In this document: positions 4,233 to 21,035 of the stretch, in pieces
How positions within the stretch are numbered: the first letter of the stretch is position 1
Layout: each line of letters begins with the position of its first letter
IMG/VR virus record: IMGVR_UViG_2585427755_000009
Direction: 5' to 3' (one strand)
From: a virus
Taxonomy: Duplodnaviria > Heunggongvirae > Uroviricota > Caudoviricetes
Length of the DNA stretch: 27,338 bases
Translations under genes and position numbers: made by a program
The notes under the pieces: generated by a model
What the model was told of the DNA's origin: nothing
Databases searched by the model: none
What the model saw: only the letters and a program-made list of their open reading frames with translations

Positions 4233-5086
4233 GCACCATCCTGAAATGGGCGGGAAATAAAACCGCCATTATGTCCGAACTGAAAAAGCATCTTCCTGCT
4301 GGCCCGCGACTGGTTGAACCTTTCGCGGGTTCCTGTGCAGTGATGATGGAGACGGAGTACCCCAGCTATCTTGTTGCGGATATTAATCCTGATTTAATCA
4401 ACCTCTATAAAAAGGTTGCTGCTGATTGTGAATCGTTTATATCTCGCGCCAGAGTTTTATTTGAGATCGCAAACAGGGGGGTGGCTTATTACAACATAAG
4501 GCAGGAGTTTAATTACTCAACTGAAATTACTGATTTCATGAAAGCGGTATATTTCCTGTATCTCAATCGTCACGGTTACCGTGGTTTATGTCGCTATAAC
4601 AAGAGCGGGCATTTCAACATTCCCTACGGTAATTATAAAAATCCGTATTTCCCTGAAAAAGAAATTCGCGCATTTGCAGAAAAAGCCCAGCGAGCAACGT
4701 TTATCTGCGCCAGCTTTGATGAAACGCTGGCGATGTTGAAGGCGGGGGATGTGGTGTATTGCGATCCGCCGTATGACGGTACGTTTTCCGGCTATCACAC
4801 TGATGGTTTCACTGAAGATGACCAGTATCACCTGGCATCCGTTCTTGAACATCGGTCATCAGAAGGACATCCGGTCATTGTTTCTAACAGTGATACATCC
4901 CTGATCCGTTCGCTGTATCGCAATTTTACTCACCACTATATCAAGGTAAAACGCAGCATCGGTGTGGCAGCTGGCGAGGGTAAATCAGCAACAGAAATCA
5001 TTGCTGTTTCCGGGCCGCGCTGCTGGGTGGGATTTGATTATTCGCGTGGCGTGGATAGTTCTGCCGTGTACGGAGTACGTGCATGA
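4229..5086 (+). CDS. dam: DNA adenine-N6 methyltransferase (Dam family, GATC-type)
   Basis: Catalytic DPPY motif ([10 protein letters not shown]) and N-terminal AdoMet-binding region (LKWAGNK...EPFAGSCAV). Start ATG 4229 overlaps the previous stop (ATGA). Confidence 0.85.
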
Positions 5087-7497
5087 GCCATGCCGATATG
5101 AACAACTGCTGCGGCTTTAACGAGGCTGCCGCAGCGTTCTCATGGAACAGCCCGAAAAAGGCCATTAACCCTTATCTGGACCCGGCGGAAGTTGCGCCGG
5201 TTTCTGCGCTTTCAAACCTGATCGCTCTGTACGCTGCCGATAACGAACAGGAACACCTGCGCCGCGAGGCACTGAGTGATCAGGTCTGGGAGCGTTATTT
5301 CTTTAATGAATCCCGTGATCCTGTCCAGCGCGAAATGGAGCAGGATAAGCTCATTAGTCGGGCAAAGCTGGCGCATGAGCAGCAGCGTTTTAATCCAGAT
5401 ATGGTCATTCTGGCGGACGTCAATGCCCAGCCTTCCCATATCAGCAAGCCGCTGATGCAACGTATTGAATACTTCAGCAGCCTGGGCAGGCCAAAGGCTT
5501 ATTCCCGCTATTTGCGTGAGACGATTAAGCCATGTTTGGAGCGACTGGAGCATGTACGCGACAGCCAGCTATCTGCATCTTTTCGTTTTATGGCAAGCCA
5601 TGTAGGGCTGGACGGCCTGCTGATTCTGCCTGAAATGAGTCAGGATCAGGTGAAACGCCTGTCTACTCTTGTCGCTGCGCATATGAGCATGTGTCTTGAT
5701 GCCGCTTGTGGTGATTTGTACGCCACCGATGATGTTAAGCCAGAAGAAATCCGCAAGACATGGGAAAAGGTGGCAGCAGAAACCCTGCGACTGGATGTTA
5801 TCCCGCCTGCGTTTGAGCAACTTCGTCGGAAAAGAAACCGCCGTAAACCCGTGCCCTATGAACTCATTCCGGGTTCGCTGGCGCGTATGTTGTGCGCCGA
5901 TTGGTGGTACCGGAAATTATGGAAGATGCGTTGCGAATGGCGGGAAGAGCAGTTGCGTGCTGTTTGCCTGGTCAGCAAAAAAGCATCTCCCTATGTCAGC
6001 TATGAAGCCGTGATGCATAAACGTGAGCAGCGCCGTAAGTCGCTGGAGTTTTTCCGTTCTCATGAACTGGTGAACGAAGACGGCGACACGCTGGACATGG
6101 AGGATGTGGTAAACGCCAGCAGCAGCAACCCGGCGCATCGCCGCAATGAGATGATGGCCTGTGTTAAAGGTCTGGAGCTTATCGTAGAAATGCGCAGTGA
6201 CTGTGCCGTTTTCTACACTATCACCTGTCCGTCGCGTTTCCATTCCACGCTCAATAACGGCAGACCAAACCCGACCTGGACAAACGCGACGGTAAGACAA
6301 AGCAGCGATTATCTGGTCGGCATGTTTGCTGCATTTCGTAAGGCTATGCACAAAGCCGGGTTGCGCTGGTATGGCGTGCGGGTGGCTGAACCGCATCATG
6401 ACGGCACAGTTCACTGGCACCTGTTGTGTTTCATGCGCAAAAAAGACCGCCGCGCCATTACTGCATTGTTGCGTAAGTTTGCCATCCGTGAAGACCGCGA
6501 GGAGCTGGGCAATAACACGGGGCCACGCTTTAAGTCTGAGCTGATAAACCCGCGCAAAGGTACGCCAACAAGCTACATCGCGAAATACATCAGTAAGAAC
6601 ATTGACGGGCGTGGTCTGGCTGGCGAGATCAGCAAGGAAACGGGTAAATCCCTGCGTGATAACGCTGAATACGTTAATGCCTGGGCGTCTCTGCATCGTG
6701 TTCAGCAATTCCGCTTCTTTGGTATTCCGGGGCGTCAGGCTTACCGTGAACTTCGCTTGCTGGCTGGTCAGGCGGCAAGGCAACAGGGTGACAAAAAAGC
6801 AGGTGCGCCGGTACTGGATAACCCGCGTCTTGATGCCATTCTGGCTGCTGCTGATGCTGGTTGTTTTGCCACCTACATCGTGAAGCAGGGCGGCGTACTG
6901 GTTCCCCGTAAATATCACCTCATCAGAACCGCTTATGAAATCAACGAAGAGCCGACCGCCTATGGCGATCACGGCATTCGTATTTATGGCATCTGGTCAC
7001 CCATTGCAGAGGGCAAGATCTGCACTCATGCAGTGAAGTGGAAAATGGTTCGTAAAGCCGTTGACGTTCAGGAGGCGGCAGCCGACCAGGGCGCTTGCGC
7101 CCCTTGGACTCGTGGCAATAACTGTCCCCTTGCTGAAAATTTGAACCAACAGGAGAAAGATAAATCAGCTGATGGGGACACCAGAACGGATATTACCCGC
7201 ATGGATGACAAGGAGTTGCACGATTACCTGCACAGTATGAACAAAAAAGAGCGCCGGGAACTGGCTGCAAGGTTACGTCTGGTGAAACCGAAACGGCGTA
7301 GAGACTACAAACAGCGAATTACAGACCATCAACGACAGCAGCTCGTCTATGAACTGAAGTCCAGAGGATTTGATGGCAGCGAGAAAGAGGTCGATTTACT
7401 CCTTCGCGGCGGCAGTATTCCATCAGGAGCAGGCTTGCGTATCTTCTATCGGAACCAGCGTCTGAAGGAAGATGATAAGTGGCGGAACCTGTATTAA
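5083..7497 (+). CDS. repA: Replication initiation endonuclease (P2 gpA / 186 RepA rolling-circle family)
   Basis: 804-aa protein after dam (ATGA overlap); contains the HUH-type motif [11 protein letters not shown] and the downstream YIAKYISK tyrosine region typical of P2 A protein. Confidence 0.9.
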
Positions 7498-7649: not shown

Positions 7650-7838
7650 ATGCAGGACTATTTTTTGGAGTCTTTGAAGCTCCAGCGCATTGATTTTTTT
7701 CTTAAGCTTGTAGCGGCTAGTGAGTGTAGTGATGAAGAGAAGGGGCTGGCTCTGCAGTGGGTTTCTGAATTAACTGATGAACTCATGGCAAAAATCAGAA
7801 CCCACGAATACAACCGCTCAATGGATGTCATCAGTTGA
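7650..7838 (+). CDS. Small SOS-induced protein, candidate Tum-like antirepressor
   Basis: 62-aa ORF with strong RBS (AGGAGG) immediately downstream of the LexA box. Position matches 186 tum; the sequence itself was not recognised. Confidence 0.5.
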   Translation: MQDYFLESLKLQRIDFFLKLVAASECSDEEKGLALQWVSELTDELMAKIRTHEYNRSMDVIS

Positions 7839-7849
7839 GGTGACTTTTT

Positions 7850-8083
7850 ATGCGCATTGAAATAATGATCGATAAAGAGCAGAAGATTAGCCAGTCTACC
7901 CTGGACGCCCTTGAATACGAGCTTTACCGCAATCTGCGCCCCCTGTATCCAAAAACGGTAATTCGCATCCGCAAAGGTAGCTCTAACGGTGTGGAACTGA
8001 CCGGACTGCAACTGGACGAAGAAAGGAAGCAAGTGATGAAAATTATGCAGAAAGTGTGGGAAGACGACAGCTGGCTGCATTAA
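7850..8083 (+). CDS. DinI-family protein
   Basis: MRIEIMIDKE...DALEYELYRNL...KIMQKVWEDDSWLH aligns by eye with E. coli DinI (MRIEVTIAKT...DALAGELSRRI...EILQETWESADDWF). RBS GAGGTGA; second gene of the LexA-box operon. Confidence 0.8.
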   Translation: MRIEIMIDKEQKISQSTLDALEYELYRNLRPLYPKTVIRIRKGSSNGVELTGLQLDEERKQVMKIMQKVWEDDSWLH

Positions 8084-8268
8084 GAAACGTTGCCCCTAGG
8101 AGGATTCATTCTAATGGGGGCTAGTTTGGGCAACGAGTGAAATAAGGCGTAAGGTGGGCGGTCATTTTTATAAGTGATCGTCCGCTTTGTGCCAGAAGCG
8201 AACGTTTCTTCTGCTATCTTTCGTCAATTAGCGAATGGCAGACTAATTTGCAACGGATAATCTGAATT

Positions 8269-8295
8269 TTGTTAGATTATGGGTATTCCTATAAT
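8269..8295 (+). promoter_or_regulatory. Putative sigma70 promoter for the KAP NTPase cargo gene
   Basis: TTGTTA (8269-8274), 15-bp spacer, consensus TATAAT (8290-8295), in the AT-rich leader upstream of the KAP gene. Confidence 0.3.
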
Positions 8296-8404
8296 ATTTA
8301 CCAATAATAACCTTACAATGTACACTACCGATTGAGTTTTCCATAGTTGGCCTTTGGCTCTACTTACCATCTATGTTTATGTATTTTATCAAAATGGACT
8401 AAAA

Positions 8405-10297
8405 ATGCACAATACGTACATCAAAGACTATCTAGAATATTACCTTAGCCTTAAAACTGAACCTCAATACGCCATTATGCTTAAAGGTGCTTGGGGATCA
8501 GGTAAAACTTGGTTCATTGAACGAGTTCTTGAAGAATATAGGCAGAAACATTCAGAGTTCAAATTTCTAAAAGTGAGCTTGTATGGCGTCAACTCTATTG
8601 AGCAGATTGAAGATGAGTTCTATCGTCAACTGCATCCTGTCCTATCAAACAAAGCCCTTATCTTTGGTGCAAATGTACTAAAAAATACGCTTAAGGCTAC
8701 TTTCAAGATCGATCTTAATGGCGATAATAAATCTGACGTAGATGTCAATAGCAATGTTCCCACCATTAATCTTAGCGACTTTACTAGAAAACCAGATGGT
8801 TTTGTGCTGGTCTTTGATGATGTCGAGAGAGCTGGTGTAGATTTACCAATCTTATTTGGATATATAAATCACTTTGTGGAGGTAAACGGATACAAAGCGA
8901 TCTTGGTTGCCAATGAAGATGAAATAATCAATAGAGAAAAGCGAATAAATAATGATGATGAGAAATCTCGCAATGAATACATGAGAACAAAAGAAAAGCT
9001 AGTAGGTAAAACATTTGAAGTAACGTCAGATTTACATAGTGCTTGTAAGATTTTTTTGAACGTAATTAGTAGTTTGCATGTTGCTAATATATTTAAAGAA
9101 GATATGCAGACAATAGAGGACCTCTATGTGTCAGCGAATTATAATAATCTAAGACACTTGAGGCAGTTCTTTCTCGATGTACAACGAATTATTTCCCTTT
9201 TGGGAGATAAATATGTAAGTAACGATGAATTTATAAGGGTGTTTTTTCATCAATTGTTAATTTTTTCGATGGAGTACCGGGGAGGGAATCTTAGTTACGA
9301 GGATTTCAATTCAATCGGCAATGTTAATTATGGTATGTTTTTGGGTAAAGAACGTGTCAAAAGTAAGTATGACATGATTGTCGAGAAATATTCGTCTCCT
9401 GTATTAACCGAGAAGTTACTGGATGGTGCGTCTTGGAGAGAACTAATCTGTGATGGAAAGGTAACGGGTGATCTTCTTGCTCAGTTGGATATTACGCGAT
9501 TTTTTAGAAGCAGCGATTCCCAAGCATGGGAGTATTTGTGGAACTATAGAGAACTAAATGAAACTATGCTTTATGAGCAGTACGCTATTGCTAAGGATAA
9601 CCTGTTTTCAGGTAAGATCACTTCCTTAGGTGAACTTCTGATGACAGCGAGTATTTTGCTGGAAATGGCGAAAGAAGGTCTAACAACAGATGATGTTCAT
9701 GATCTCATAAATGAGACAAAACAGAATATAAATAATTATTATAATAGACTTAGAGCTGAAGATGTACATAAGGAATATGCGCAAACACATTATAACGAAT
9801 TAAGGGCATGGCGTGGTTTAGGTTTTCTTGACAGGGATAGTGATGACTTTAAGCTCATTATTGAACATATTAAAATAGAAAGGAAGAAACGGTTTGATGA
9901 TTCAATTTCGGAATTTGCATTGCAGTTCAGAGATGAGTTACAAAGGGGAAAATTATCGTTGTTATCTGAATTGAGTCATTCTAATAATAGACAGTTAAAT
10001 CTTCATGATGTACCTTTTTTACACTTAGTTCCTGCTGATGTTTTCATTGAAAGCTATAGGAAACTTGATCCAGTTATCATGAGGAAACTGGCATTTAGCT
10101 TACGGAGTCGTTATTCTGATGCGGATGCCAGAACTAGACTGATTGAAGAATATAACTGGTTGATCAACCTAAAAGATATAGCTGTAGATTTCATTAAAAA
10201 CTCAGAAAATAGCGTTTTTCAGGTCTTTCACGTAAAATTTTTCATTGACTATGTACTAACTGACGCAATCAAATTCTTTAGTGATGGGACAAATTAA
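8405..10297 (+). CDS. KAP-family P-loop NTPase
   Basis: Walker A GAWGSGKT close to the N-terminus and a Walker B-like hhhhDDVER (VLVFDDVER), the arrangement of KAP NTPases. About 630 aa, AT-rich relative to core phage genes. ATG 8405; the track start at 8354 is TTG. Confidence 0.8.
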   Translation: MHNTYIKDYLEYYLSLKTEPQYAIMLKGAWGSGKTWFIERVLEEYRQKHSEFKFLKVSLYGVNSIEQIEDEFYRQLHPVLSNKALIFGANVLKNTLKATFKIDLNGDNKSDVDVNSNVPTINLSDFTRKPDGFVLVFDDVERAGVDLPILFGYINHFVEVNGYKAILVANEDEIINREKRINNDDEKSRNEYMRTKEKLVGKTFEVTSDLHSACKIFLNVISSLHVANIFKEDMQTIEDLYVSANYNNLRHLRQFFLDVQRIISLLGDKYVSNDEFIRVFFHQLLIFSMEYRGGNLSYEDFNSIGNVNYGMFLGKERVKSKYDMIVEKYSSPVLTEKLLDGASWRELICDGKVTGDLLAQLDITRFFRSSDSQAWEYLWNYRELNETMLYEQYAIAKDNLFSGKITSLGELLMTASILLEMAKEGLTTDDVHDLINETKQNINNYYNRLRAEDVHKEYAQTHYNELRAWRGLGFLDRDSDDFKLIIEHIKIERKKRFDDSISEFALQFRDELQRGKLSLLSELSHSNNRQLNLHDVPFLHLVPADVFIESYRKLDPVIMRKLAFSLRSRYSDADARTRLIEEYNWLINLKDIAVDFIKNSENSVFQVFHVKFFIDYVLTDAIKFFSDGTN

Positions 10298-10583
10298 TAT
10301 TTTGTTGATTAACATAGGGATATATTATGAGAAGTACTAGGGATGGTCAGCAACATTATTAATGTCCGCTTCGCTCAAAGCAGGCTTTGTGCTTTGTAAG
10401 TACGTATGTTTCGTTTATCAAGCGATCATTCGGTTACTGGATTTCAGTTCCCCCGTAAGTGCATGACTATGCCGCATGAGATCGCATGATCGTTTGCGGA
10501 TCGTTTTTGCTAAGGCCCGCCAGAACTGGTGGGATTTTGCGTAGATCATGCACCTGCATGAAAACCGCTACATAAAGCGGGCA

Positions 10584-10602
10584 GGCGTGGCGGGGATACG
10601 AT
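10584..10602. other. Putative cos (cohesive-end) core of a P2/186-type phage
   Basis: GGCGTGGCGGGGATACGAT matches about 14/19 (P2) and 16/19 (186) of the cos sequences as I recall them. It lies in a 360-bp GC-richer non-coding island between two AT-rich cargo genes, where P2-family cos is expected (between the A side and Q). The comparison is from memory. Confidence 0.3.
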
Positions 10603-10659
10603 TGCGCGCGCAAGCTAAAGTGGCAATAATGAGCATGTAAGGTAAAATTCAAGGAGATT

Positions 10660-11814
10660 ATGATGTATATCTGCGAAAGTCACATTGTTGAATCAAATAT
10701 AAAAAAACTAATTTTTTCGCAAAATATACGAGGTATTTGTGCTTTTTGTTGTGCAGATACTGTTTGTTTAGATACTGATTCTTCAGAAGTACGTAATTTG
10801 TTGAAAGCTATTCTGAGATATCATTATGATGAAGTCGATTACAATACTCATTTTGGAGGGGAGTATTACCCGAGTTTTCTATTGGAAGATGATTTTATTT
10901 TCACCAAGGATATACAGGAGCATGATGAATCTTTTGGGGAACTCGATAGCGAATTGTGGGATATGGCATTTGATAGTGAGGGAATAAATATTTATGCAGG
11001 CTATGGATCTGATGGTCTATATAATACGCCATATATGTCTATCAGAAATGCACATCAGCCATTTTTAGATTCTCTGTCAAAACAGCTTTCAGAAAAGAAT
11101 TACCATGATTTTGAAGGTGAGCTAAGAAGTATTATAAAAGGTTATGGTGATATTTTTTCGAAGATAATAGAAGGAAGTTCTGTGGTATATAGAGCCAGAG
11201 TTGGGACTGCTGGCTATAAAACAGCACTTAGGGGATTTAGCCGTGAAGGAAAGAAAATATTTGTTCCATTTAAAGATAAGGAAATAGGAGCCGTGCCACC
11301 ACTAAAGGCTACTGCTGGCAGGGCTAATAGAGCAGGCGTTTCTTACCTTTATTGTGCTACAGATAGTTATACTGCAATTGCGGAAGTTCGACCTCATCCA
11401 ACAGATGTTGTTTCAATTGGTAAATTTAGAGTTGCAAAAGCATTAAAGGTATTCGATTTTTCTTATCCTAATTTTTTAGAGTTTATTGAGAGTGATGAAA
11501 GTTTATTATCCATGATACCATATGCAAAGATGGCAGGTATTTTTAATACTGCAACTCCACCTTCCTTAGAAGGAAGATATAGTGTGTCCCAACTAATATC
11601 TGATTGTATAAGGAAAGAGGGGTATGATGGTATACAATTTTCAAGTACAGTTGGTAAAGGTAAGAACTTGGTTGTTTTTAATCCTTCATGTATGGAATTT
11701 ATAGATGGTTCATCAAAAGTAATAGAAATTGACAAGGTTCAGTATATTTACGAGGAAAAGCAGGTTGTTGGTATGAATGATCAATGGGAGATTTATTACG
11801 ATGAAGTTGAATAA
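10660..11814 (+). CDS. RES-domain protein with a Cys-rich N-terminal extension (putative NAD+-targeting toxin/Abi effector)
   Basis: C-terminal half carries the three RES landmarks: GRANRAG (Arg), YLYCATDSYTAIAEVRPH (Glu) and DGIQFSSTVGKGKNLVVF (Ser). N-terminal 200 aa has CxxH...CxFCCxxxxC. AGGAG RBS; AT-rich. Confidence 0.8.
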   Translation: MMYICESHIVESNIKKLIFSQNIRGICAFCCADTVCLDTDSSEVRNLLKAILRYHYDEVDYNTHFGGEYYPSFLLEDDFIFTKDIQEHDESFGELDSELWDMAFDSEGINIYAGYGSDGLYNTPYMSIRNAHQPFLDSLSKQLSEKNYHDFEGELRSIIKGYGDIFSKIIEGSSVVYRARVGTAGYKTALRGFSREGKKIFVPFKDKEIGAVPPLKATAGRANRAGVSYLYCATDSYTAIAEVRPHPTDVVSIGKFRVAKALKVFDFSYPNFLEFIESDESLLSMIPYAKMAGIFNTATPPSLEGRYSVSQLISDCIRKEGYDGIQFSSTVGKGKNLVVFNPSCMEFIDGSSKVIEIDKVQYIYEEKQVVGMNDQWEIYYDEVE

Positions 11815-11821
11815 GTGATAA

Positions 11822-11857
11822 TAGCCCCATTGAGAATTTTCATTTCTCTTGGGGCTA
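11822..11857. terminator. Stem-loop, likely bidirectional terminator between the convergent RES-domain gene and portal gene
   Basis: TAGCCCCA / TGGGGCTA outer stem with inner GAGAA / TTCTC stem and 7-nt loop, in the 52-bp gap between convergent stop codons. Confidence 0.45.
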
Positions 11858-11866
11858 ACTTAAATA

Positions 11867-12898
11867 TTAATCAAAGCAATATGAATTGAATGTAATTAAA
11901 TCTTCACCTAGCCAATCATTGACCTCCTCCATCCTTTTTTGTAAAGGTAGCAACTCGTTTCGAACAAACACATTAGCAGCCTTCTCCACATCCCCAAATC
12001 CCCCGACATTATTTGGCATTATCCCCATCATCTGTGGCGGCACGCGGTGTGCTGCCATCATGTCATCGCGACTAACATTTTTGATATTCAGAAATTCATC
12101 CTTCGCCGCGACTTCTGACAACGGGATAATCTGAAGTCCGTCCTTTTTGCCGTTCGGCGAGTACATAAACAGGTTGCGGAAGTTGCCCGGACCTTTGGCG
12201 CTTTTCATCGCATTACGGAGGTTGTTCACATCTTCCTGGTTCTGCGCGGCATCGGTCATGTACATGATGAAGCCTGCATGACTACCGTTAATGTAATACT
12301 TCCGGCGGAACAGCGTGGCGGACTCGTTGAGCAGGGCTGACGGAATGGCAGAAAGATAACCGGGCAGGCCGTAGATCTCCTGGTTGATATCCGGTTCCAT
12401 CAGGTGAAAAATGCTGCCTTTCGTGAACTGATACGGCTGTGTAGTCATGCCGTATTGCACAAACCAGTAGGTATCCAGGTCTAACCCGCGTCGGGTGTAT
12501 TTTGCCAGAGCAGGCTCAAGGGCGATAACTTCACCGAAGCGGTTCGTGCGTTTCTCCAGGTAGGCGTTACCAAATACCAGATAGTCCTGCACAAAACGTG
12601 AAAAAGCCTGCTGGCTGAGCAGCGGGTGAGGGATGTAGGTACTGGTCAGAATGTTGCATTTCACCGCAATTGGTGAGCTGTGATGCACGGCGGCGCGGAA
12701 GGTTCGTGCCAGTCCGTCAAAGCTGACGGGCGGCTCATACCAGCGATCCATCTGTACGCATTCCACATAGTCCAGCAGTTCACGGCGGTCCAGAACAGGA
12801 ACGGGATCGCCAAAGCTGAATGCTTCGGCTGAAGTTTGGCTTTTATGCTTGAGCTGATTCGTCGCCGCAGCGCGGTTTTTCTTACTCTTTCCCATCAA
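11867..12898 (-). CDS. Q: Portal protein (P2 gpQ family)
   Basis: 343 aa, transcribed leftward together with the terminase; size and position are those of P2 Q. Confidence 0.9.
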   Translation of the reverse strand: MMGKSKKNRAAATNQLKHKSQTSAEAFSFGDPVPVLDRRELLDYVECVQMDRWYEPPVSFDGLARTFRAAVHHSSPIAVKCNILTSTYIPHPLLSQQAFSRFVQDYLVFGNAYLEKRTNRFGEVIALEPALAKYTRRGLDLDTYWFVQYGMTTQPYQFTKGSIFHLMEPDINQEIYGLPGYLSAIPSALLNESATLFRRKYYINGSHAGFIMYMTDAAQNQEDVNNLRNAMKSAKGPGNFRNLFMYSPNGKKDGLQIIPLSEVAAKDEFLNIKNVSRDDMMAAHRVPPQMMGIMPNNVGGFGDVEKAANVFVRNELLPLQKRMEEVNDWLGEDLITFNSYCFD

Positions 12899-19796: not shown

Positions 19797-20238
19797 ATTG
19801 CAGAAGGTGGACGACTGGCTGAGTGCCTTGCTGGCGAATCTGGAGCCAGCCGCAAGAAGCCGCATGATGCGCCAACTGGCGCAGGAACTTCGCCGGACAC
19901 AGCAGCAGAATATCAGGATGCAGCGCAACCCTGACGGCAGCAGCTATGAACCGCGACGGGTAACAGCACGCAGTAAAAAAGGCCGTATCAAACGTCAGAT
20001 GTTTGCAAAGCTGCGCACCACAAAATACCTGAAAACTGCCGCCAGCACCGACTCTGCCAGCGTGCAGTTTGAAGGCAAGGTGCAGCGCATTGCCCGCGTT
20101 CATCACTACGGCCTGCGCGATCGTGTCAGTCGTAAGGGACCGGAGGTCCGTTACGCAGAGCGTCGCCTGCTGGGTGTAAATGATGATGTTGAAGCAAATA
20201 TCCGTGATATTTTGCTACGTTGGCTAAGCCAATATTAA
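19789..20238 (+). CDS. S: Tail completion / virion morphogenesis protein (P2 gpS family)
   Basis: 149 aa, GTG start overlapping the R stop; P2 R-S synteny. Confidence 0.8.
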   Translation: MAELQKVDDWLSALLANLEPAARSRMMRQLAQELRRTQQQNIRMQRNPDGSSYEPRRVTARSKKGRIKRQMFAKLRTTKYLKTAASTDSASVQFEGKVQRIARVHHYGLRDRVSRKGPEVRYAERRLLGVNDDVEANIRDILLRWLSQY

Positions 20239-20239
20239 T

Positions 20240-20935
20240 TCATGTCAAATATTGATAACTTTTATCAATTTCAAGTTTGTGAAATTTGGTTATCTTTGAA
20301 TCAATGTATAAATCTATGAACATTGCTATCCCTATCATAAATATAAATAGAATGCTTAAATAAATAATGGGGGTGGCAATCATAATTGTAAATTTGTTCT
20401 TGTCTGTAGTTTTTGCTAACTCTTCTTTCTTTTCAGGAATTAGCAAGTAGCTACAAATGAAATCTTTTGTGGCTTGTTGGATTGAAGTGATCTTATCAAG
20501 CTGTGACTTGTCAACACATACATCTGGTGTGATATTCCATTCAGATGTGTATGGTATGTTTTGTGCGTGTTCTGGTTTCATCCAAAAGGAATCTTTTGTT
20601 TCTCTATGTGTGATTTCAACCCAATTTACGGGTTCTTTGGCGATGAAATAGGTAAATTTATAAAAACAAAGTGCTGAGGTCATAATGACTGCAATTCCAA
20701 ATGAGACGATAAATATTTTATGTTTTTTAATATGGGGTTTTGTGCTTAACTTATATTTGCAAAGACTAAGTCTAATAATTGGCTTTGATATTCCAATCTT
20801 TGATATCAAAAAGTCTTCTTCTGGATAGGATGTGTTTAACCATGACCAAAAAGCTGAGATGCCACCTATAAGCCATTTAAATATAAGACCACCAATGGCC
20901 GTAGCTAAAAATGTATTTATTTTATCGATTTCCAT
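20240..20935 (-). CDS. Integral membrane protein of unknown function (AT-rich moron between S and V, opposite strand)
   Basis: 231 aa with 3-4 predicted TM helices. Strongly AT-rich, antisense to the late operon; its stop codon is one base from the gpS stop. Confidence 0.6.
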   Translation of the reverse strand: MEIDKINTFLATAIGGLIFKWLIGGISAFWSWLNTSYPEEDFLISKIGISKPIIRLSLCKYKLSTKPHIKKHKIFIVSFGIAVIMTSALCFYKFTYFIAKEPVNWVEITHRETKDSFWMKPEHAQNIPYTSEWNITPDVCVDKSQLDKITSIQQATKDFICSYLLIPEKKEELAKTTDKNKFTIMIATPIIYLSILFIFMIGIAMFIDLYIDSKITKFHKLEIDKSYQYLT

Positions 20936-20971
20936 ATAGATCCCCTTTTGGTTGAGCTATCTGGGATTATA

Positions 20972-20989
20972 TGTATGAGAGACAGAACA
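20972..20989. promoter_or_regulatory. Candidate late-promoter activator site (TGT-N12-ACA) upstream of baseplate gene V
   Basis: TGTATGAGAGACAGAACA, 47-64 bp upstream of the V start codon, where the P2 V late promoter would be expected. Confidence 0.35.
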
Positions 20990-21035
20990 ATGAAGCGAGG
21001 TTCGTTAAAATAGGAATCACGGGCATTCTTTCTTC

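Follow-up and report, generated by a model that had tools for sequence, protein, structure and literature searches.

A KAP-family NTPase gene of the PDC-S49 family beside cos in a P2/Fels-2-like prophage: a candidate single-gene anti-phage cassette

Single-protein NTPases (nucleoside triphosphatases) of the KAP family with undescribed C-terminal regions protect Enterococcus faecalis from phages, and this EF_KAP-type defence requires the Walker B motif as well as the C-terminal region and does not behave as abortive infection (PMC13552941). A further source of candidate systems is the PDC series of PADLOC, comprising 145 candidates nominated because their members lie inside operons for BREX, DISARM or type I restriction-modification (RM) (10.1101/2024.01.29.577857). 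In P2-like phages, the gpA–cos–gpQ interval has been described as a hotspot for defence genes (PMC9122126, PMC9519451). The subject of this analysis is a gene for a KAP-family P-loop NTPase of the PADLOC PDC-S49 family (the KAP gene; 8405–10297, + strand; 630 amino acids (aa) plus stop codon), found within this interval on a 27,338-nucleotide stretch of viral DNA (the window; IMG/VR record IMGVR_UViG_2585427755_000009) that represents a P2/Fels-2-like prophage. On balance, it is considered probable that the prophage carries this gene as an accessory cassette and that its product, an ATPase of the PDC-S49 branch, acts against phages autonomously, as a single-gene system. The hotspot, the PDC-S49 candidate status and this precise combination of genes have all been recorded previously, and no new concept is added to them here; Table S5 of Rousset et al. 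(2022) lists the arrangement hypothetical + DinI + KAP_NTPase (WP_032176113) + RES, together with the accession WP_077758113.

Membership of PDC-S49 was evident from three PADLOC models of this family (E=3e-156, 1.3e-149, and 3.6e-88), which covered almost the whole protein, the best of them aligning residues 2–623 with profile positions 5–614 of 624. The protein shares the length, the architecture and the single-gene character of this family, and embedding of homologues in type I RM operons was seen directly, as in five cyanobacterial loci the KAP gene lies between HsdS/HsdM and an HSDR_N-like gene. The P2 hotspot context of the KAP gene is evidence beyond the embedding criterion, while membership as such gives no mechanism or phenotype, and no text mentioning PDC-S49 was found in the literature. 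Beyond PDC-S49, PADLOC returned no other match even at E≤10, with models of PifA and QatA present in its library, both of which readily match another KAP protein from a related prophage. Searches of NCBIfam gave no match, PHROGs placed the protein solely in phrog_4740, a family without an assigned function, and a search of PDB sequences with the family profile found nothing (best match E=0.44).

The assignment to the KAP family, first proposed from the DNA sequence and its translations, was borne out by the Pfam KAP_NTPase model (PF07693), which matched residues 22–280 over profile positions 4–290 of 293 with a score of 72.3 bits (E=5.3e-20) against a gathering score of 20 bits. The Walker A motif reported near the N-terminus and the Walker B-like motif were located at residues 28–35 (GAWGSGKT; 8486–8509, + strand) and within residues 133–142 (FVLVFDDVER; 8801–8830, + strand). 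Among 40 homologues with 26–89% identity, residues G28, W30, G31, G33, and K34 were invariant in 40/40, and residues F137, D138, D139, E141, and R142 were equally invariant. N170 and R250 are also conserved. KAP NTPases reportedly carry a DDxDR-like Walker B signature, a description said to go back to Aravind and co-workers in 2004. The protein displays both the Walker A pattern GxxGxGK[ST] and the Walker B pattern of the family (hhhhDD followed by an acidic residue and Arg), and it also has the AAA+/STAND-like alpha-beta ATPase core with a helical lid that characterizes the family.

The open reading frame (ORF) was originally given as 8354–10297 (+ strand). This frame is indeed open in its maximal extent from TTG at 8354; however, that codon is merely the first possible start and was dropped in favour of ATG at 8405. 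Judging from comparison of sequences, the latter is probably the true start of the gene, because it agrees with the RefSeq annotation of a 100%-identical gene in Escherichia coli KE47 (WP_032176113, 630 aa), with the length of nearly all full-length homologues (600–650 aa) and with the point at which the PADLOC profile begins.

EF_KAP and the three other, metagenomic proteins of that study on Enterococcus and gut bacteria (PLoS Biol 2026, PMC13552941), compared here by description, are likewise borne on mobile elements and consist of one polypeptide with an N-terminal KAP domain and a C-terminal region of ~320 residues without assigned domains. The C-terminal regions of this group are described as diverse, and the hosts are Gram-positive whereas those of the window protein are enterobacteria. 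EF_KAP possesses transmembrane helices, one of them inside the NTPase domain, whereas none was predicted in the window protein, because its maximum 19-residue Kyte-Doolittle hydropathy is only 1.3. As helices within the NTPase domain occur in many but not all members, their absence leaves KAP membership standing, and the protein is predicted to be a soluble variant of the family. Between the two Walker motifs there is, in place of these helices, a conserved, non-membrane insert (residues 79–128; 8639–8788, + strand), in which L80, K83, D103, and P119 are invariant among the 40 homologues, as are the flanking H77 and P78. This insert is not hydrophobic, and AlphaFold2 modelled it with a predicted local distance difference test score (pLDDT) of <50 despite its invariant residues. 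It was noted that the insert takes the position of the transmembrane helices found in many other KAP proteins.

A large helical C-terminal region had also been suggested, and this was recovered in AlphaFold2 models (pLDDT 82.9 for the full length and 87.5 for the C-terminal half). The full-length model is made up of an alpha/beta ATPase core with a helical lid (residues ~1–300), the insert, and an all-helical C-terminal half. The N-terminal part is modelled as an ORC/Cdc6-like AAA+ ATPase, the closest structural relatives of the core being the DNA-replication initiators Cdc6/ORC and the transposition ATPases TnsC/MuB; a Foldseek search of the PDB with the full model returned only AAA+ matches of low template modelling score. 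No known fold or enzymatic domain was recognised in the C-terminal half (residues about 301–630; 9305–10294, + strand), an all-alpha, family-specific region which is proposed to act as a sensor or interaction module. When used as the sole query, this half retrieved 436 representative clusters, with nearly all matches lying at positions ~280–620 of proteins of 600–650 aa, and the architecture is therefore fixed rather than shuffled. Identity to distant homologues amounts to 49–54% in the ATPase core versus 17–18% in the C-terminal half, and by this measure the C-terminal half appears to evolve much faster than the core.

PifA of the F plasmid, which excludes phage T7, had been put forward as an analogue of the window protein. 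The link held at the level of the superfamily, as PifA is likewise a KAP protein with a Walker A of the GAWGSGKT type and a mobile-element-borne exclusion function, but it did not extend to membership of the PifA family. The PADLOC PifA model gave no match at E≤10 (in comparison to 2e-64 for another KAP protein found in the same slot of a related prophage), and since alignment to F-plasmid PifA with hhalign covered just 45 columns around Walker A, the analogy is restricted to the superfamily. In addition, PifA is longer (741 aa versus 630 aa), the C-terminal halves of the two proteins are unrelated, and F carries pifC directly upstream of pifA, with nothing comparable at 8094–8404 of the window. 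RdrA of RADAR and QatA work together with partners (the RdrB deaminase, and QatB, QatC, and QatD, respectively), none of which occurs near the KAP gene, elsewhere in the window or in 80 species-level loci of homologues, and RdrA is also the larger protein (about 800–850 aa versus 630 aa). Membership of the PifA, QatA and RdrA families was rejected, given that no PifA or QatA profile matched and that the similarity to RdrA is at the level of the fold only.

With regard to genomic position, backbone homology to phages 500465-1 and Fels-2 stops at 8093, just past dinI, and resumes at 10458–10613, a conserved cos region of 156 bp that forms the right border of the slot. Here, GGCGTGGCGGGGATACGAT at 10584–10602 resembles the annotated P2 cosL cohesive end GGCGAGGCGGGGAAAGCAC and is preceded by collinear P2 cos-arm motifs. 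According to the P2 annotation, tin and old are found between gene A and cosR, with just 167 bp from cosL to gene Q; for this reason the placement of the KAP gene at an old/tin-equivalent position next to a cos-like site, as stated in the original prediction, is correct. The P2 genes old and tin occupy the same slot and are likewise non-essential lysogenic-conversion cargo of atypical composition. P2 Old is also an exclusion protein containing a P-loop ATPase, but it combines an ABC-type ATPase with a TOPRIM nuclease and has no sequence or domain relation to KAP. Furthermore, transcription of old and tin runs leftward and away from cos, and that of the KAP gene rightward and towards cos. The window has two cargo slots, one on either side of cos, with the KAP gene in slot A (dinI to cos) and a RES-domain gene in slot B (cos to gpQ).

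Comparison of the locus across related P2-like prophages showed that its flanks are kept and that the content of slot A differs. This slot is empty in phage 500465-1 (68 bp) and contains genes for a 243-aa hypothetical protein in Fels-2, a 141-aa hypothetical protein in 19KM2415N and an unrelated 706-aa KAP protein in K56-43-un (PADLOC PifA-like, 2e-64). Slot B in turn holds AbiU in Fels-2 (2.7e-112), a TIR protein in 500465-1, and ParA together with a SIR2 ThsA/LmuA-like protein in SFE8. A survey covering 5,426 complete genomes of E. coli, 1,284 of which possess the flanks of the slot, identified the KAP gene in 46 of these about 1,284 flank-bearing genomes, in every case on the chromosome, with the slot elsewhere being empty or otherwise filled, as would be expected of the variable cargo that the KAP gene had been taken for. 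The marked AT-richness ascribed to the gene was also apparent, with a GC content of 34–37% over 8501–10500 compared with 50–55% in gpA and 51–61% in the head genes, that is, about 50–60% in the phage backbone.

The extent of the mobile unit, placed at about 8204–10370 (+ strand), follows from comparison with prophages carrying different cargo and from the occurrence of the same cassette in other genera. The cassette measures ~2.2 kb and comprises an upstream region, the coding sequence and a short 3′ tail. While homology to the empty-slot phage 500465-1 ends at 8093, the E. coli prophage carrying the PifA-like gene matches the window up to 8203, and only the flanks (≤8203 and ≥10371) are common to the two. 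The intervening linker that follows the DinI stop codon (8094–8203, + strand) is common to some other prophages with an occupied slot. Lambdoid prophages of Serratia and Edwardsiella contain the same cassette together with 100–220 bp of upstream sequence, the nucleotide identity being about 82%; nucleotide homology extends over 8184–10381 in the Serratia prophage (82.6%) and over 8303–10366 in that of Edwardsiella.

Relatives of the KAP protein were identified in 241 species-level genomes belonging to Proteobacteria, Bacteroidota, Cyanobacteria, Desulfobacterota and others, and also in about 80 IMG/VR viral contigs, in 10 of which close relatives (71–98% identity) occupy the same P2-like slot. 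Searching deposited phage genomes with tblastn gave three weak partial matches only, and the family is thus seen mostly in prophages and uncultivated viral contigs. It was also observed that distant relatives (21–38% identity; loci L117, L126, L148, L156, L170, L180, and other IMG/VR loci) repeatedly map a few kb from divergent gpA homologues and on the strand opposite to them; on this sequence comparison, several P2-like lineages may have recruited KAP-type genes to a replication-proximal hotspot. In Ectopseudomonas composti (locus L020, 7240–15557), an element with small and large serine recombinases carries a KAP homologue as cargo and appears to split a Mg-chelatase/ComM-like gene, echoing the serine recombinases reported as defence markers in PMC13552941.

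Six sampled alleles of the KAP gene were all intact at 630 codons, with ratios of nonsynonymous to synonymous substitution rates (dN/dS) of 0.13–0.36, mostly 0.2–0.3, and the gene is under purifying selection. This bears on the possibility that it is an inactive remnant or a neutral passenger carried along by recombination at the hotspot. Its rarity (46/5,426 genomes), its AT-rich foreign DNA and the lack of an assigned function in NCBIfam or PHROGs would be in keeping with such an origin. Against this stand the intact alleles and their dN/dS, catalytic motifs without variation in 40 homologues of as little as 26% identity, and full-length relatives in 241 species-level genomes of many phyla, and a remnant is therefore given very little credence.

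The original prediction also proposed that the gene has its own promoter. A candidate sigma-70 promoter is present at 8268–8294 (+ strand), with a perfect −10 element (TATAAT, 8289–8294) and a −35 element matching at 4/6 positions (TTGTTA, 8268–8273), but it was not called by a consensus promoter scan on account of its spacer of 15 nucleotides. In the same scan, promoter-like sites were not enriched over shuffled sequences (10 observed versus 15.2 expected). The −10 element reads TATAAT or TATAAA in the E. coli alleles and ACTAAA in Serratia and Edwardsiella. A terminator-like hairpin with a T-run (8183–8200) lies after dinI within the linker. As the cassette travels with its own upstream region, autonomous transcription is plausible, and it is plausible from its sequence elements that the candidate promoter drives the KAP gene. 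A motif in this upstream region, AATTAxCGAATGGxAG (about 8226–8241), is invariant in the E. coli, Serratia and Edwardsiella KAP cassettes, with diverged non-coding sequence around it, and may represent a regulatory site.

The proposal that the system consists of a single gene was examined by clustering the 486 ORFs that neighbour the gene in 80 species-level loci. No conserved partner emerged, with no neighbour family in >5/80 loci (the group with five being the type I RM operon that contains the KAP gene), and ten KAP contexts inspected individually had no neighbour in common, in agreement with a stand-alone gene. An HNH_2 (PF13391) gene for a protein of about 295 aa adjoins the KAP homologue in two unrelated genomes, of Serratia (L005, 4794–5693) and Lysobacter (L011, 8264–9148). 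It was dismissed as a partner, not being among the recurrent families of the 80-locus clustering.

The most conspicuous candidate for a partner in the window itself is the RES gene (10660–11814, + strand), and the two genes could be imagined as a two-part system spanning cos, with the KAP ATPase as sensor and the RES protein as an effector targeting nicotinamide adenine dinucleotide (NAD+). In the RES protein (384 aa), Pfam places the C-terminal RES domain at residues 213–347 (E=2.8e-18), and the 210-residue N-terminal region is without an assigned domain. The protein gave no match in PADLOC, NCBIfam, PHROGs or PDB sequences, and no Xre-type antitoxin gene is adjacent to the RES gene. The KAP protein lacks an effector, the RES protein lacks its usual Xre antitoxin, and the two genes adjoin on the same strand in the window prophage. 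Moreover, this RES gene is present in only six of the 5,426 E. coli genomes, and in five of these six a KAP-type gene occupies slot A, drawn from two unrelated families (PDC-S49 type in three, PifA-like in two). Against such a system, 43 of the 46 KAP-bearing E. coli genomes are without RES, at least three other slot-B contents accompany KAP (a 223-aa hypothetical protein, ParA + SIR2, and a 97-aa hypothetical protein), the PifA-like gene is present in 20 genomes and RES in just two of those, and one RES-bearing prophage is without KAP. RES was found at 0/80 IMG/VR KAP loci, and no partner recurs in the 80 genome loci. In addition, cos separates the two genes, placing them at opposite ends of the packaged DNA, and a 99–100% identical block (10570–12570) containing cos, RES and most of gpQ is common to the window and K56-43-un (L013, 2406–6201). 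Their co-occurrence is explained by a single recombination block adjoining a swapped slot A, and coupling of KAP and RES as one system was therefore rated unlikely and set aside; a two-part arrangement of this kind is judged very improbable. A recombination block is the probable source of the coincidence between KAP-type and RES genes, yet it does not account for it fully. The RES gene is regarded as independent cargo on the other side of cos, and its product is possibly a single-protein defence or toxin that targets NAD+ and has not been described before.

A broader alternative is that the KAP gene has a non-defence accessory role, be it in counter-defence against host immunity, control of lysogeny or induction, maintenance of the DNA or plasmid state or some other aspect of fitness, at a hotspot which merely tolerates insertions. 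Several points argue for such a role, weigh against an anti-phage function, or do both. About a quarter of P2 hotspot loci are non-defence and partition-like and about 2% are toxins (Rousset et al., PMC9122126), so position in the hotspot is not in itself proof of defence. The PDC systems are predictions only (10.1101/2024.01.29.577857), and the table of evaluated systems of Rousset et al. (2022) has no KAP entry. No nuclease, NADase, pore or protease domain was recognised in the KAP protein, several distant homologues stand singly among housekeeping genes without defence neighbours, and the candidate promoter is kept among E. coli alleles only. The nearest structural relatives of the ATPase core, as stated above, are replication initiators and transposition ATPases, which would also suit a role outside defence. 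However, slot A is dispensable, being empty in 500465-1, and the genes held in the same or the adjacent slot of related prophages are recognised defence genes (PifA-like, AbiU, SIR2 ThsA/LmuA-like, and TIR). The cassette has spread among phages of unrelated type and has also entered type I RM operons, which fits portable host protection better than a phage-specific replication role, and related single-protein KAP NTPases are experimentally antiviral (PMC13552941). Taken together, a non-defence role is considered unlikely.

If the KAP gene does serve as an anti-phage ATPase, a lysogen would express it from its own upstream region, with the hairpin after dinI insulating it from the early operon. 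The N-terminal 300 residues would act as an ORC/Cdc6-like AAA+/STAND-type nucleotide switch, whose active site (K34, D138/D139, E141/R142) is intact, and the fast-evolving helical C-terminal half may recognise a component of an infecting heterologous phage. Such recognition would be linked to the binding or hydrolysis of ATP and to a change in conformation or oligomeric state that would block phage development. Since nuclease, NADase, pore and protease domains are all lacking, the effector step would most likely use ATP to sequester or remodel a factor of the phage or the host rather than destroy it enzymatically. The sequence does not by itself separate abortive infection from direct interference.

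Taking this line of thought further, PDC-S49 could represent a new class of effector-less immune ATPases that use ATP to capture or remodel a component of phage replication or packaging, a notion for which our expectations are low. The KAP core, the insert (residues 79–128) and the helical C-terminal domain may in that event stop a phage without cell killing and without degradation of nucleic acid or NAD+. In a weaker variant, slot-A KAP-type genes may instead cooperate across cos with the RES protein.

Were protection by the KAP gene to prove true, one of the 145 candidates of PADLOC would become a validated single-gene system, and this in E. coli, the most tractable of hosts; the cassette is compact with defined native boundaries. 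The finding of antiviral KAP NTPases with undescribed C-terminal regions would then extend to enterobacterial prophages. As no effector domain is recognisable, the mode of action could differ from the usual nuclease, NADase and pore effectors.

The remainder of the window follows a P2-like order. An integrase, a CI repressor and then a Dam methylase are the first genes, followed by the replication endonuclease gpA (5083–7497) and DinI (7850–8083). Between the latter two lies a 62-aa ORF (7650–7838, + strand; phrog_698, function not assigned), which is kept in KE47, NGF1, SFE8, SMN152SH1, K56-43-un, 19KM2415N, and Fels-2 among the related P2-like prophages and phages that were examined. Beyond the RES gene, the portal gene gpQ (11867–12898, − strand) is followed by terminase, head and tail genes. 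A second AT-rich island (20001–21000; GC 34–40%) is situated among the late and structural genes and contains a gene for a 231-aa DUF6216 protein (20240–20935, − strand) that had no match in PADLOC, NCBIfam or PHROGs. By its position, this island is consistent with the Z/fun locus, described as a second hotspot for defence genes in P2 (Vassallo et al. 2022).

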